From the IMG/VR virus record IMGVR_UViG_3300037843_000385: a DNA stretch of 30,659 nucleotides, one strand, 5' to 3'. How positions within the stretch are numbered: position 1 is the first letter of the stretch; each line of letters starts with the position of its first letter. The stretch is from a virus. The position numbers and the translations under genes are program-made. Shown piece after piece: positions 6,109 through 9,183 of the stretch. Under the pieces are notes generated by a model. The model was not told where the DNA came from and did not search any database. It was given only the letters and a program-made list of their open reading frames with translations.

Positions 6109-6184
6109 AGGGGAGTAAGATAACCGGCAGTCGGTCGGTCTCCAAAACCGTACAGTGGCGGTTCAAATCCGTCCTCCCCTGCCA
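6109..6184 (+). tRNA. tRNA-Trp (anticodon CCA), CCA encoded
   Basis: Acceptor AGGGGAG/CTCCCCT, T-arm GGCGG-TTCAAAT-CCGTC, anticodon loop CTCCAAA. 76 nt. Confidence 0.6.
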
Positions 6185-6218
6185 AAGTTTTTGAAAGGAA
6201 AGTAGTTACAAGTTCTAT

Positions 6219-6295
6219 GGTGGCGGTCGTCTAGCGGCTAAGACACCTGACTGTGGATCAGGATAGCATGGGTCCGAATCCCATTCGCCACCCCA
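6219..6295 (+). tRNA. tRNA-His (GTG) with G-1, CCA encoded
   Basis: GGTGGCGG...CGCCACCCCA ends match E. coli tRNA-His. Anticodon loop is CTGTGGA. Confidence 0.75.
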
Positions 6296-6314
6296 ATTTT
6301 GAGGAGAGACGTTG

Positions 6315-6390
6315 GTCCGTGTAGCTCAGAAGGAAGAGCACCACGCTCCGAACGTGGAGGTCGCGAGTCCGAGTCTCGCCATGGACACCA
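6315..6390 (+). tRNA. tRNA-Arg (CCG), CCA encoded
   Basis: Acceptor GTCCGTG/CATGGAC, anticodon stem CCACG/CGTGG with loop CTCCGAA, T-loop TCCGAGT. Confidence 0.7.
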
Positions 6391-6394
6391 GTTT

Positions 6395-6601
6395 ATGATG
6401 ACGTTCACGATCAGCGACGAGAAGGCGGCGCAGTACAAGGCGTGGAGCGAAGAGCACCGGAAGACGTGCGGGGCGCGACCGGATATGAGCATGGCCCTGT
6501 ACAGCTTCGTGTTCACGCCGAACGGTCTTGGGGACGGCATATCGGTCAAATGCCCCTGCGGCGAGAGGGTATTCCTCGACGCCGGGGACGAGGATTTATA
6601 G
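6395..6601 (+). CDS. Small protein (68 aa) embedded between tRNAs, CPCG motif
   Basis: The track ORF 6299..6601 starts inside a tRNA. The first ATG after the tRNA, at 6395, gives MMTFTISDEKAAQYKAW... Confidence 0.5.
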   Translation: MMTFTISDEKAAQYKAWSEEHRKTCGARPDMSMALYSFVFTPNGLGDGISVKCPCGERVFLDAGDEDL

Positions 6602-6679
6602 GCGCGTGTAGCTCAGCCGGAATAGAGCGCTATTCTGCGAAGATAGAGGTCGGCGGTCCGAGTCCGCCCATGCGCACCA
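6602..6679 (+). tRNA. tRNA-Arg (GCG), CCA encoded
   Basis: Acceptor GCGCGTG/CATGCGC, anticodon stem CTATT/GATAG with loop CTGCGAA. 78 nt with a 10-nt D-loop. Confidence 0.6.
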
Positions 6680-6687
6680 AGTTTTTT

Positions 6688-6765
6688 GCCGGGCTAGCCA
6701 TTGGACATGGCGGCACGCCTTCGAAACGTGCACGTTTGCGGGTTCGAATCCCGCGCCCGGTTCCA
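6688..6765 (+). tRNA. tRNA of uncertain identity. The perfect anticodon stem GCACG/CGTGC encloses a 9-nt loop, CCTTCGAAA. An alternative 7-nt loop CTTCGAA gives Arg (TCG).
   Basis: Acceptor GCCGGGC/GCCCGGT, T-arm GCGGG-TTCGAAT-CCCGC, CCA encoded. 78 nt. Confidence 0.5.
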
Positions 6766-6775
6766 GGTTTTTTTT

Positions 6776-6853
6776 GCGCCCGTAGCTCAGCGGAATAAGA
6801 GCATTGGTCTACGAAACCAAGGGTCGCGTGTTCGAATCACGCCGGGCGCACCA
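6776..6853 (+). tRNA. tRNA-Arg (ACG), CCA encoded
   Basis: Acceptor GCGCCCG/CGGGCGC, anticodon stem TTGGT/ACCAA with loop CTACGAA. Confidence 0.75.
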
Positions 6854-6857
6854 ACAT

Positions 6858-6944
6858 TGAGGTGTAGGGGAATCGGTAGACCCACCTGGCTGTTACCCAG
6901 GAGCCGAAAGGCACTTGCAGGTTCGAAGCCTGCCGCCTCAGCCA
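6858..6944 (+). tRNA. Type-II tRNA (long variable arm, discriminator G73) with anticodon GTT (Asn codons). Atypical Ser-like/Asn chimera.
   Basis: Acceptor TGAGGTG/CGCCTCA, 3-bp D-stem, anticodon stem CCTGG/CCAGG with loop CTGTTAC, variable arm AGCCGAAAGGCACTT, T-arm GCAGG-TTCGAAG-CCTGC, then G and CCA. 87 nt. Confidence 0.55.
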
Positions 6945-6962
6945 GTTTAGAGGGAGGATTCA

Positions 6963-7294
<332 letters not shown>

Positions 7295-7299
7295 AGTTT

Positions 7300-7374
7300 G
7301 GGTCTGTAATTCAGCGGCTAGAAGCCCTCGCTCTTAACGAGGTAACGAGAGTTCGAGTCTCTCCAGACCCACCA
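7300..7374 (+). tRNA. tRNA-Lys (CTT), CCA encoded
   Basis: Acceptor GGGTCTG/CAGACCC, anticodon stem CCTCG/CGAGG with loop CTCTTAA. Confidence 0.65.
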
Positions 7375-7394
7375 GGCATCTGATAGAATAGGGC

Positions 7395-7796
7395 ATGAAC
7401 AAGAAAGCTCAAGGCACTCGGTCAGTCGGTGCGGTGATGAGCCACTTCATCAAAGCAGGCAAAATCGTCTTGATGCCGATTGGAGACAATGAGCGATACG
7501 ATTTCGTCATTGATGAGGATGGGCGGTTTCGGCGTATTCAAGTCAAAACGGGCAAGGTCAAGAACGGAGCGATAGAGTTTAGTACCGCCAGCACTAATCT
7601 TGAAAACGGTAAGTGGGTGAGACACGGTTATAGGGGACAGATTGACGATTTCGCAGTTTACTGCCCTAAACTCGACAAGGTTTACCTTGTGCCTATAGAC
7701 GAAGCAGGTGGTCAGACACACTGTTCTTTGCGGCTTGAGCCAGCGAAGAACGGTCAACAAAAGGGCATTAGGCTGGCTGAGCAGTACGAGGTTTAG
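7395..7796 (+). CDS. PD-(D/E)xK-type (Hjc-like) nuclease, candidate free-standing homing endonuclease (133 aa)
   Basis: ...ERYDFVIDEDGRFRRIQVKTGK fits a D...(D/E)xK-like core (D, ED, QVK). The gene is visibly lower in GC than its flanks. It sits between two tRNA-Lys(CTT) genes, and its stop overlaps the downstream tRNA by 1 nt. Confidence 0.6.
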   Translation: MNKKAQGTRSVGAVMSHFIKAGKIVLMPIGDNERYDFVIDEDGRFRRIQVKTGKVKNGAIEFSTASTNLENGKWVRHGYRGQIDDFAVYCPKLDKVYLVPIDEAGGQTHCSLRLEPAKNGQQKGIRLAEQYEV

Positions 7797-7871
7797 GGCT
7801 ACTAACTCAACTGGTAGAGTAGCAGACTCTTAATCTGCGAGTTCGGGGTTCGAGTCCCCGGTGGCCCACCA
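7796..7871 (+). tRNA. tRNA-Lys (CTT), CCA encoded
   Basis: Acceptor GGGCTAC/GTGGCCC, D-stem ACTC/GAGT, anticodon stem GCAGA/TCTGC with loop CTCTTAA. Confidence 0.7.
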
Positions 7872-7910
7872 AGTTTCCGGGTATTAGAACTCTTAGGATA
7901 GGAGGTCAGC

Positions 7911-8456
7911 ATGCCCGACGTACTGGTTCTCGACATGAACTACCGCCCTGTCGGCTTCAAGTCCTGGCAGGACGCGATCACGAACGTGTGGAAGGAGCGG
8001 GCCATCGTCGTCAAGGAGGACGAGTCCGGCCTGAAGCTCCACTCCCCGTCGTTCGAGGTCGGGATGCCGAGGGTGATCCGCGTGCGCAACGCCTGGGTGA
8101 AGCGGCGCAAGACATCCGTGCCGTTCTCGCGGCGCAACCTGTACGTCCGCGACGGCGGCGAGTGCCAGTACTGCGGTAGGCACCTCAAGCTGGAGGAGTA
8201 CACCCTCGATCACGTGATCCCGCGTTCGCAGGGCGGCGTGAGTTCGTGGGTCAACATGGTCCTCGCCTGCATGCGCTGCAACAAGCACAAGGCGGGCCGG
8301 ACGCCGCAGCAGGCAGGGATGCCCCTCCTGCACAAGCCCGTCGTCCCGAAGGTGGACGACCCGAAGTACAACTTCAAGCTCCACATCCGCAAGATGCGGC
8401 CCGAGTGGAAAGAATGGGAGAATTTCCTTTACTGGAATATCGAGCTTGACGAGTAG
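7911..8456 (+). CDS. HNH endonuclease (181 aa)
   Basis: Shine-Dalgarno GGATAGGAGG precedes the ATG. Motifs are CQYCG...LDHVIPRSQGG...CMRCNKHK. Confidence 0.85.
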   Translation: MPDVLVLDMNYRPVGFKSWQDAITNVWKERAIVVKEDESGLKLHSPSFEVGMPRVIRVRNAWVKRRKTSVPFSRRNLYVRDGGECQYCGRHLKLEEYTLDHVIPRSQGGVSSWVNMVLACMRCNKHKAGRTPQQAGMPLLHKPVVPKVDDPKYNFKLHIRKMRPEWKEWENFLYWNIELDE

Positions 8457-8468
8457 ATCAAGCGACAA

Positions 8469-8500
8469 GCCCCGGAGGAGCAACCCTCCTCCGGGCGAAA
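8469..8500 (+). terminator. Stem-loop, possible terminator or processing site
   Basis: CCCGGAGGAG-CAAC-CCTCCTCCGGG hairpin after the HNH gene. Only a weak T-tract follows (AAATTT). Confidence 0.35.
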
Positions 8501-8503
8501 TTT

Positions 8504-8581
8504 GGCCCCGTAGCTCAGCGGAATAAGAGCGACGCACTCCTAACGCGTAGGTCACTGGTCCGAATCCAGTCGGGGTCACCA
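8504..8581 (+). tRNA. tRNA-Arg (CCT), CCA encoded
   Basis: Acceptor GGCCCCG/CGGGGTC, anticodon loop CTCCTAA with an A-C mismatch at 31-39, T-loop TCCGAAT. Confidence 0.55.
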
Positions 8582-8594
8582 ATTTTTGAGTTGT

Positions 8595-8668
8595 TGCCTC
8601 CTCGTCCAACGGTAGGACACGGGTCTCTGGAACCCGGTATCGCGGTTCGAATCCTCGGGAGGCAGCCA
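8595..8668 (+). tRNA. tRNA-Gln (CTG), U1-A72, CCA encoded
   Basis: Acceptor TGCCTCC/GGAGGCA, D-stem GTCC/GGAC, anticodon stem CGGGT/ACCCG with loop CTCTGGA. Confidence 0.65.
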
Positions 8669-8675
8669 AATTTGC

Positions 8676-8704
8676 TGGACAATGCCGCGAAAATGCGGTA
8701 TAAT
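8676..8704 (+). promoter_or_regulatory. Promoter TGGACA-N17-TATAAT driving a leaderless transcript
   Basis: Perfect -10 hexamer with 17-nt spacing. ATG lies 7 nt downstream of the -10. Confidence 0.6.
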
Positions 8705-8711
8705 GATCAGA

Positions 8712-8891
8712 ATGAACTCGACGCTGAAGACGATCCTGAAGGCCGCGGCGATAGCGGTCGTGCCGGGGCTGGGCGCTTTCTGGCTGTTAAGCAGGCTCGC
8801 GAAAGAGCACGAGCGGCAGGAGTTCAGGGAGTACATCCGCAAGACCTACGGGAAGGGAAGCAAGTACGAGAACGAAAATGTTGAGCCTTAG
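8712..8891 (+). CDS. Small membrane protein (59 aa), probably leaderless
   Basis: Track ORF 8682..8891 starts upstream of the -10 element. The in-frame ATG at 8712 lies at the predicted transcription start. Hydrophobic segment AAAIAVVPGLGAFWLL. Confidence 0.5.
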   Translation: MNSTLKTILKAAAIAVVPGLGAFWLLSRLAKEHERQEFREYIRKTYGKGSKYENENVEP

Positions 8892-8892
8892 C

Positions 8893-9003
8893 ATGAACGC
8901 GGACACGCTCTTCAACGTCCTCAGCGGCGTTGTGATGCTTCTCTCCGTCTACGCCTTCTACCAAGCCTCCACCTACGACGCAAAGTTCAGAAGAAAACGC
9001 TGA
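8893..9003 (+). CDS. Possible 36-aa membrane peptide (MNADTLFNVLSGVVMLLSVYAFYQ...)
   Basis: ATG 1 nt after the upstream stop. Not in the ORF track (too short). Hydrophobic core and basic tail. Confidence 0.3.
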   Translation: MNADTLFNVLSGVVMLLSVYAFYQASTYDAKFRRKR

Positions 9004-9015
9004 CCCACATCCTGC

Positions 9016-9098
9016 GGGCGCGTAGTCGGGGGAAGCCTCTACCTTCTTAGCCGTAAACGGAACTGAAAATGAGAGTTCGACTCTCTCCGCGCCTACCA
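9016..9098 (+). tRNA. Aberrant tRNA-like element (83 nt): good acceptor, T-arm and ACCA end, but no canonical D-arm or anticodon-arm fold
   Basis: Acceptor GGGCGCG/CGCGCCT, T-arm GAGAG-TTCGACT-CTCTC, then A and CCA. The only 5-bp anticodon-like stem is GGAAG/CTTCT with loop CCTCTAC. There is an extra CCG-TAAA-CGG hairpin. Confidence 0.35.
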
Positions 9099-9108
9099 AC
9101 CTTTTCGG

Positions 9109-9183
9109 GGGCCGCTAATTCAATTGGCAGAAGCGCCGACTTTTAATCGGTTAATCCCGGTCCGAGTCCGGGGCGGCCTACCA
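9109..9183 (+). tRNA. tRNA-Lys (TTT), CCA encoded
   Basis: Acceptor GGGCCGC/GCGGCCT, anticodon stem GCCGA/TCGGT with loop CTTTTAA, T-arm CCCGG-TCCGAGT-CCGGG. Confidence 0.7.

Follow-up and report, generated by a model that had tools for sequence, protein, structure and literature searches.

A class II tRNA with an asparagine anticodon in a phage tRNA cluster, and its long-armed relatives in phages and bacteria

Textbooks confine the long variable arm of bacterial tRNAs to Leu, Ser, Tyr and Sec, and to our knowledge every described tRNA-Asn has class I architecture. What, then, is encoded at positions 6858-6944 of IMG/VR virus record IMGVR_UViG_3300037843_000385, a stretch of 30,659 nucleotides (nt; the whole of it is called the window here), where a tRNA gene joins a long variable arm to the Asn anticodon GUU? 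A first-pass annotation, made from the letters alone, had proposed a Ser-like body that might insert Ser for Asn. The explanation that we prefer, at a probability of about 0.6, is a functional class II asparagine tRNA, a real Asn decoder.

Fold, make-up and identity elements of the window tRNA

ARAGORN, Rfam and minimum free energy (MFE) folding agree on the gene. ARAGORN called a tRNA-Asn(gtt) at 6858-6944 on the plus strand, the strand of all window features below, 87 nt long with its encoded CCA. The body from position 1 to the discriminator G73 spans 84 nt (6858-6941) and is followed directly in the genomic sequence by the CCA end (6942-6944). The covariance model (CM) RF00005 matched 6858-6941 over model positions 1-71 with 51.1 bits (gathering score 29, E 2.5e-9), placing GUU at 34-36 in the loop CUGUUAC (6890-6896) and a 13-nt insertion in the variable region. 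Thermodynamic MFE folding, which is independent of the CM, returned the same five-arm cloverleaf.

In the ARAGORN structure the acceptor stem consists of UGAGGUG (6858-6864) and CGCCUCA, which with G73 fills 6934-6941; U1 pairs with A72 (6940), and U8 and A9 lead to the D arm. The latter, GGG-GAAUCGGUAGA-CCC (6867-6883), has a 3-base-pair (bp) stem, G13.A22, A15 and G18G19, a class II core of Leu type. In the anticodon arm CCUGG-CUGUUAC-CCAGG (6885-6901), GUU occupies 6892-6894 and is followed by A37 and by C38, which is rare (about 1% of long Asn tRNAs). The 15-nt variable arm A-GCC-GAAA-GGC-ACUU (6902-6916), present in both the MFE fold and the ARAGORN structure, comprises one unpaired nucleotide, a 3-bp stem, a GNRA tetraloop and four unpaired nucleotides, the last of them U48. 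Rfam and ARAGORN agree on the T arm GCAGG-UUCGAAG-CCUGC (6917-6933). The acceptor and T stems have the standard 7 and 5 bp, and the arm and D stem depart from the 4-5-nt variable loop and 4-bp D stem of class I.

The type II form with GUU, G73, a 3-bp D stem and a 15-nt arm, as first described, was therefore confirmed, and the CM fold upheld both the anticodon and the long arm, the two points on which it might have differed. A metagenome contig from JGI (L421) is 100% identical to window positions 6748-8132, GTT loop included. A sequencing error in the loop is very unlikely, because this contig and more than 170 homologues retain GTT. The stretch 6858-6944 is a genuine tRNA gene with a class II body and a GUU anticodon.

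The two halves of the molecule resemble different tRNAs. An ordinary phage tRNA-Asn of 74 nt (L394), which has the same acceptor stem, UGAGGUG, matches the acceptor/T half, G73 included, with 94% identity. For the D, anticodon-stem and variable half, with the anticodon removed, the best non-Asn match was the tRNA-Leu(CAA) of Ralstonia phage RSP15 (80%), followed by four other Leu isoacceptors and then by Tyr (71%) and Ser (70%); in the D arm, 16 of 17 positions are those of the RSP15 tRNA. Judged by these matches, the window tRNA is a mosaic of an Asn-type acceptor/T half and a Leu/Tyr-type D, anticodon-stem and variable half.

The window tRNA has the full set of bacterial Asn determinants, G73, G34, U35, U36 and A37 (PMC9976931, Table 1), a list with which the earlier naming of GUU and G73 as elements for asparaginyl-tRNA synthetase (AsnRS) agrees. 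It also has the U1-A72 pair (6858 with 6940) that is a determinant for GatCAB in the conversion of Asp-tRNAAsn (PMC9976931, PMC2330236). Leu identity in bacteria depends on A73 and the tertiary core, and Tyr identity on A73, G34 and U35 (PMC9976931, Table 1). The Leu-type core is present (A15-U48, G12-C23, G13.A22, D loop GAAUYGGUAGA), with G73 where 127 of 128 long tRNA-Leu have A73; of the Tyr set, G34 and U35 are present, together with G73 and U36. Because the window tRNA is without A73, Leu and Tyr identity are argued against, and G73 of Escherichia coli tRNA-Ser is an antideterminant against the leucyl- and tyrosyl-tRNA synthetases, LeuRS and TyrRS (PMC9976931).

The bacterial Ser determinants are G73, C72, G2-C71, R4-Y69, C11-G24, a large variable region and G30-C40 (PMC9976931, Table 1). 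The window tRNA has G73, G2-C71, G4-C69 (R4-Y69) and G30-C40; it has A72, paired with U1, instead of C72 and G11-C24 instead of C11-G24, and its variable region and tertiary core are not of Ser type. A tally of such elements does not discriminate, since short canonical tRNA-Asn have as many (G73, G30-C40 and C11-G24 are shared), nor does G73, which is found in 97% of long and 96% of short tRNA-Asn and is common to tRNA-Ser. We therefore masked the anticodon and positions 1, 72 and 73 and scored the tRNA with profile hidden Markov models built from the Ser, long Leu, Tyr and short Asn tRNAs that ARAGORN had labelled in the same loci. These models assigned held-out known tRNAs correctly in 79/84 (Ser), 64/64 (Leu), 41/46 (Tyr) and 78/79 (short Asn) cases, and gave the window tRNA 8.5 bits for Ser, 27.8 for Leu, 27.9 for Tyr and 12.8 for short Asn. 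The variable stems of tRNA-Ser have at least 4 bp in 92% (mostly 4-7), with at most one unpaired 3' nucleotide in 77%; the window geometry of 3 bp and four unpaired 3' nucleotides is Tyr/Leu-like and occurs in 2-7% of tRNA-Ser. The Ser-like body first supposed is thus not supported: the Ser profile is the lowest, the variable arm is atypical for Ser, and C72 and C11-G24 are absent. More generally, the 2:71 and 3:70 pair frequencies of long tRNAs mirror those of short tRNA-Asn (C2-G71 56% vs 52%), and UCC and UGG are the commonest first-three-base prefixes of both, in contrast to tRNA-Ser, with G2-C71 at 93% and the prefix GGA. These comparisons support an Asn identity for the window tRNA.

Long-armed tRNA-Asn genes in phages and bacteria

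Pattern scans of IMG/VR and of bacterial genomes, with an ARAGORN call required of every member, gave at least 134 distinct long GUU tRNAs in IMG/VR loci and 42 further ones in bacterial loci; matches without a call, which were tandem tRNA-Asn 3'-fragment repeats and chance matches, were excluded. The statement that no bacterial type II tRNA uses GUU was consequently wrong. Most of the bacterial copies are members of dense tRNA arrays (10-36 tRNAs in 8 kb), as in Mycobacterium, Verrucosispora, Micromonospora, Bradyrhizobium and a Burkholderiales metagenome-assembled genome (MAG). Sampled members score 52-57 bits on the Rfam tRNA model. A scan allowing either arm length found 61 short and 6 long ARAGORN-confirmed phage tRNA-Asn (6/67, about 9%).

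Among the matches listed, the copy in the Burkholderiales MAG is nearest to the window gene (83% identity), and the closest relatives, at 76-83%, differ from it by compensatory changes. With the 87-nt gene as query, sensitive blastn found GenBank phage homologues annotated as tRNA-Asn in the Otagovirus group around phiPsa374, Pseudomonas phage Milchi and Brevundimonas phage Bajun; ARAGORN revealed an unannotated long tRNA-Asn in Xanthomonas phage BUDD. Queries from other sub-types matched the phiKZ group (25 Pseudomonas records), Mesorhizobium phage Cp1R7A-A1 and Erythrobacter phage XM05. The homologues of phiKZ (PHIKZ_t02, 89 nt in the RefSeq annotation), phiPsa374, Milchi, Bajun and Cp1R7A-A1 share with the window tRNA the class II body, GUU, U1-A72, G73 and CCA, and, as in the window, a canonical tRNA-Asn accompanies them in the cluster together with homing endonucleases (within 2.1 kb in phiKZ). 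The variable arm of PHIKZ_t02 likewise has a 3-bp stem, a GAAA loop and four unpaired nucleotides. They differ in sequence (69-79% identity), and the D arm of the phiKZ tRNA is Tyr-like, CCCGAGUGGCAGCAGGG, whereas that of the window is Leu-like. Database records call these homologues tRNA-Asn or 'Pseudo' and leave the class II architecture unremarked; that of phiPsa374 is flagged 'Pseudo-GTT' by tRNAscan-SE in its record. The Otagovirus tRNA (L001 2495-2581), with identical blastn scores in 16/16 phiPsa374-group records matched, needs a bulged U in its acceptor stem (UCCG-U-GUG with CACCGGA), which may be the reason for the label.

Near relatives were sought separately. An exact-pattern search of IMG/VR for close relatives of the window tRNA found none, a metagenome scan found only the identical 1.4-kb contig L421, and megablast of the tRNA region against GenBank phages matched the canonical tRNA-Asn alone. 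These searches thus gave no near relative for a comparison of recent changes in the loop. Several members bear the label tRNA-Asn in GenBank, but our literature searches turned up no account of class II tRNA-Asn in phages. The class II tRNA-Asn is a widespread family that we did not find described.

Consistent with selection on structure, 98.7% of acceptor, anticodon and T helix cells are paired in an alignment of 36 members, as against 32-50% in slid controls. Compensatory double changes occur at 14 of the 17 pairs, and none of 500 shuffles reached the observed covariation score. Pair 1:72 is U:A in 36/36 while pairs 2-7 covary; in the larger collection U1-A72 is present in 154 of the 156 long tRNAs that begin with U, for most of which the search pattern had preset A72. 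The RNAalifold consensus recovered the cloverleaf including the D stem. MAFFT leaves the variable arms out of register and RNAalifold omits the variable helix, and the arm was examined sequence by sequence against shuffles. A hairpin of at least 3 bp forms in 93% of the family and in 64% of shuffles. The 156 members have 99 distinct stem sequences, and 78 of them have a GNRA loop (GAAA, GCAA or GUAA). By these measures the variable arm is kept as a structure, not as a sequence.

The company that the long form keeps also bears on its function. It is the sole tRNA-Asn in 36 of the 42 loci whose cluster covers at least 15 amino acids, these loci being contig excerpts beyond which a short copy may lie. 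Five clusters reach all 20 amino acids only if the long tRNA is counted as Asn, and the near-complete sets listed possess tRNA-Ser genes of their own. Because the long form fills the Asn slot beside such tRNA-Ser genes, Asn decoding is favoured over Ser-for-Asn recoding. In Solirubrobacterales MAGs, including a complete chromosome, a lone long tRNA-Asn stands in synteny between a glycosyltransferase gene upstream and a helix-turn-helix (HTH) gene downstream. The flanks are only 50-70% identical at the protein level, a divergence that indicates a vertically inherited cellular gene. Such lone copies are those at L171, L183, L205-L209 and L215 (Solirubrobacterales/Acidimicrobiia MAGs). The family is probably present in Solirubrobacterales chromosomes, where the long form may be the native tRNA-Asn.

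Rival readings and the role of the arm

If the window tRNA is an Asn decoder, the Asn system would read G34-U35-U36-A37 and G73. Charging, which we infer from sequence, would be by AsnRS directly, or by a non-discriminating aspartyl-tRNA synthetase (ND-AspRS) followed by GatCAB, which requires U1-A72; G73 would stand in place of the A73 that LeuRS and TyrRS require. AAC and AAU would then be decoded as Asn beside the canonical copy 276 nt downstream. We presume that, Pseudomonas aeruginosa aside, most hosts of the cultured phages and arrays belong to ND-AspRS/GatCAB lineages, and take this prevalence of GatCAB-using hosts as a lead. P. aeruginosa makes Asn-tRNA via ND-AspRS and GatCAB (PMC2330236).

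Several points weigh against this reading. Most family members were gathered with a pattern that fixed A72 and G73, and a scan without that constraint brought out a separate class of long GUU tRNAs with G1-C72. Class IIb synthetases approach the tRNA from the variable-loop side, and a long arm could hinder AsnRS or AspRS. Partial serylation is conceivable, because several Ser determinants (G73, G2-C71, R4-Y69, G30-C40) coincide with a long arm and because a change of A73 to G73 is known to switch identity from Leu to Ser in some systems (PMC9976931).

A rival related to that last point is a tRNA that mistranslates or has dual identity: seryl-tRNA synthetase (SerRS), blind to the anticodon, would read the arm, G73 and the acceptor stem and place Ser at AAC/AAU. 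The elements that it could use (G73, G2-C71, A3-U70, G4-C69, G30-C40 and the long arm), the known switches and the existence in other phages of the G1-C72 class with its Ser-like D arms all speak for it. We nevertheless consider it improbable, given the lowest of the four profile scores, the missing C72 and C11-G24, a variable geometry seen in few tRNA-Ser and the Leu-type core; the acceptor stem UGAGGUG is also found on a short tRNA-Asn, short canonical tRNA-Asn have equally many 'Ser determinants', and the long form occupies the Asn slot in complete sets. The Ser-for-Asn recoding first suggested is mostly unsupported, as the family fills that slot in sets that own tRNA-Ser genes. A neutral or tolerated variant, its arm without adaptive role and the gene a second copy for heavily used AAC, is an unlikely account but one with facts on its side: AAC and AAG are among the commonest codons with two tRNA genes each, long arms occur across many class I isotypes of phage clusters, and the recognition motif of AriB (below) is equally frequent in long and short forms. 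It sits poorly with a hairpin conserved in structure through 99 stem sequences with mostly GNRA loops, with a D arm co-adapted to the class II type, with the persistence of the arrangement across very distant phages and bacterial arrays, and with enrichment that is specific to isotypes.

Two further possibilities dispense with decoding. The redundancy with the canonical tRNA-Asn and the 'Pseudo' label of the phiPsa374 homologue would suit a tRNA-like RNA that serves as decoy or sponge for a host tRNA-binding factor, or as a regulatory RNA. We rate this as very improbable: the molecule keeps all the tRNA invariants, its encoded CCA and an anticodon loop of 7 nt that has U33 and A37, and most near-complete sets have no tRNA-Asn other than the long form. 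For a decaying duplicate, or an assembly or sequencing artefact, nothing specific speaks beyond the redundancy, while the stems are fully paired, the CM score is 51 bits, an independent contig is identical and relatives at 76-83% identity differ by compensatory changes, a covariation that contradicts decay; we give this barely any credence. A decoy or pseudogene, both raised in the first-pass annotation, is accordingly hard to reconcile with sole-Asn occupancy and stem covariation.

The closest functional analogue of the window tRNA is tRNA-Asn itself. Canonical tRNA-Asn (window 7220-7294, PHIKZ_t03 of phiKZ) share the loop CUGUUA, A37, G73, U1-A72 and an encoded CCA, and differ in having a 5-nt variable loop and a 4-bp class I D stem where the window tRNA has a 15-nt arm, a 3-bp D stem, G13.A22, a Leu-type core and C38. 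The nev-tRNAs of nematodes are class II tRNAs with Gly or Ile anticodons, and nev-tRNA-Gly reads GGG as leucine (PMC3333845, PMC4033280). They too have a long variable arm under the anticodon of a class I family, but they keep the elements for class II aminoacyl-tRNA synthetases and mistranslate, whereas the acceptor end of the window tRNA is of Asn type and matches its own anticodon (G73, U1-A72). It thus lacks the class II amino-acid acceptor identity that defines nev-tRNAs. Allo-tRNAs, described by Mukai et al. in 2017, reportedly have Ser identity, assorted anticodons and 8/4 or 9/3 acceptor/T geometry. The window tRNA resembles them as a non-standard bacterial or phage tRNA with a long arm and a non-Ser anticodon, and has 7/5 geometry.

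What the arm does is a separate matter. Phage tRNAs that escape nucleases are known, such as T5 tRNA-Lys/Thr/Asn against PARIS AriB (PMC12409363) and anticodon-loop variants (PMC10264068). As in the window, these are extra phage copies of a defence-targeted species, Asn GUU, in a cluster with homing endonucleases; they differ in that they have point substitutions around the cleavage site 39-41 and U16 and no added arm. By analogy, a whole extra arm, which is not known to serve in this way, might be an escape device. Host nucleases that target tRNAs, PARIS AriB for one, would cut the long-armed form poorly, and aminoacylation would be retained; we offer this sparing effect as a speculative, tentative suggestion. 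The grafted arm would act as a steric shield against AriB-like enzymes, which cut the anticodon stem between positions 40 and 41 and grip the D loop. A broader proposal, somewhat more doubtful, is that phages, phiKZ included, systematically 'class-switch' nuclease-targeted tRNAs with their own aminoacylation identity retained, as a general anti-defence design of which the window gene would be one example; the species would be Asn GUU, Thr UGU and Lys UUU, and also Met, Trp and Cys. Against a baseline of 4.4% long arms among class I isotypes of the collected phage clusters, Thr(UGU) is long-armed in 14% (odds ratio 4.2, p 4.5e-5), Cys in 10%, and Lys(UUU) and Asn(GUU) in 9% each, and each of the long-armed isotypes retains its own acceptor identity. 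The overlap of these isotypes with nuclease-targeted species is suggestive. The AriB motif U36AAUC, which occurs in 48% of long and 51% of short phage tRNA-Asn, lends evasion no support. Extra supply for AAC is the plainer alternative for a second Asn gene: AAC and AAG, at 33 and 50 per 1000 codons, are among the most frequent codons of the phage, and both are served by duplicated tRNA genes in the window.

The surrounding cluster, other atypical tRNAs and significance

The gene belongs to a cluster at 6109-9183 with 13 ARAGORN calls (Trp, His, five Arg, two Asn, three Lys and Gln), of which Rfam RF00005 confirms 12; CCA is encoded by 13/13. The exception, tRNA-Arg(TCG) at 6688-6765, is the only call below the gathering score, has U73, a 7-nt variable loop and a run of eight T after it, and may be degenerate or atypical. 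The long tRNA-Asn begins 4 nt past tRNA-Arg(ACG). The class I tRNA-Asn(GUU) at 7220-7294 (75 nt with CCA, U1-A72, G73; ARAGORN, Rfam 68.1 bits) starts 276 nt after its 3' end, close to the 280 nt first given, and the long form is indeed an extra gene beside it. Between the two tRNA-Asn genes, the open reading frame (ORF) list has an 88-codon ORF (6963-7229) with a TTG start and GAGGGAGG upstream. Rich in Ala and Arg and preceded by a strong Shine-Dalgarno sequence, it runs 10 nt into the second tRNA; Pfam and PHROG searches gave no family match for it.

Within the cluster lie genes for a PD-(D/E)XK endonuclease (7395-7796; Pfam PF11645, 128 bits) and an HNH endonuclease (7911-8456; PF01844, 53 bits). 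By tblastx, over 20 other tRNA clusters or arrays with a long tRNA-Asn have a homologue of the latter, and in phiKZ and Milchi an HNH gene likewise adjoins the long tRNA-Asn. A gene for an RlaP-family nucleotidyltransferase (PF10127, associated with RNA repair; 1186-2037) lies 4 kb upstream of the cluster. Phage tRNA regions are now regarded as anti-defence loci (PMC10264068, PMC13096335), and the window cluster, with its tRNAs interspersed with PD-(D/E)XK and HNH genes and RlaP upstream, resembles them. Farther downstream are genes for RIIA/RIIB, a Ku-like protein, an ADP-ribosylglycohydrolase and an M24 peptidase. No close cultured relative of the window phage was found, RIIA identity being at most 37%.

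The collected loci hold other atypical tRNAs. The second class of long GUU tRNAs mentioned above (loci L255-L310, e.g. L260 4717-4803 and L264 3190-3275) has at least 20 distinct members with G1-C72, mostly G73 and often Ser-like D arms (GCCGAGUGG..AAGGC). G1-C72 is a minority form (13%) among short phage tRNA-Asn too, and the long class is without the tRNA-Ser signature G2-C71/A3-U70. The window gene is not a member, and these tRNAs are better candidates for the Ser-bodied GUU tRNA at first suspected here. Well-formed long-armed tRNA-Thr(UGU), Lys(UUU/CUU), Met(CAU), Trp and Cys are present in many phage loci, L270, L084, L080, L026, L260 and L423 among them, some of the Met(CAU) being initiator-like with a C1 mismatch. 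The converse case, short-armed tRNA-Leu, numbers 114 distinct examples, and the actinobacterial arrays L150 and L161 combine class II tRNA-Asn with class I tRNA-Leu (all in L150, 2/3 in L161).

The fragment repeats noted above adjoin a normal tRNA-Asn in Acidobacteriota, Ignavibacteria, Bacteroidota and delta-proteobacterial genomes. They consist of a piece of the tRNA-Asn anticodon loop, a conserved hairpin TCCCGNN...NNCGGGA, a T arm and the acceptor 3' strand, and occur singly or in tandem, in up to 6 copies with periods of 114-392 nt (L185 5432-6657, L142 3346-3966, L179 4907-5315; also L162, L168, L193, L177, L212 and L197). In Flavobacteriaceae (L192, L201, L204) a complete tRNA-Asn has the repeat palindrome as its variable arm. 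About half of the UAU tRNAs in the collected clusters are 'tRNA-Ile(UAU)' calls of 88-96 nt whose 20-26-nt variable region contains a CAGAU-type motif (CCAGAUUAG in some), as at L015 291, L057 1697, L326 4469, L399 4203 and others. One phage tRNA cluster includes a bacterial RNase P RNA (class A, 143 bits; L015 2590-2867) and another a GOLLD RNA (172 bits; L122 6859-7338).

Overall, a long arm is found on about 1 in 11 phage tRNA-Asn genes, in phiKZ, in actinobacterial arrays and, probably, on the chromosomes of an entire bacterial order, with parallel cases in Thr, Lys, Met and Trp and, conversely, short-armed tRNA-Leu. For annotators this gives grounds against labelling long-armed tRNA-Asn genes as pseudogenes. 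Charging of these tRNAs with Asn would mean that a class II substrate is tolerated by AsnRS or by the ND-AspRS/GatCAB route, and that SerRS, LeuRS and TyrRS are excluded by very few nucleotides (U1-A72, G73 and the geometry of the arm), a natural experiment in tRNA identity. For phage defence, the family provides a testable candidate for the hardening of tRNAs against nucleases, one that can be cultured in phiKZ with PAO1 and in phiPsa374 with Psa.

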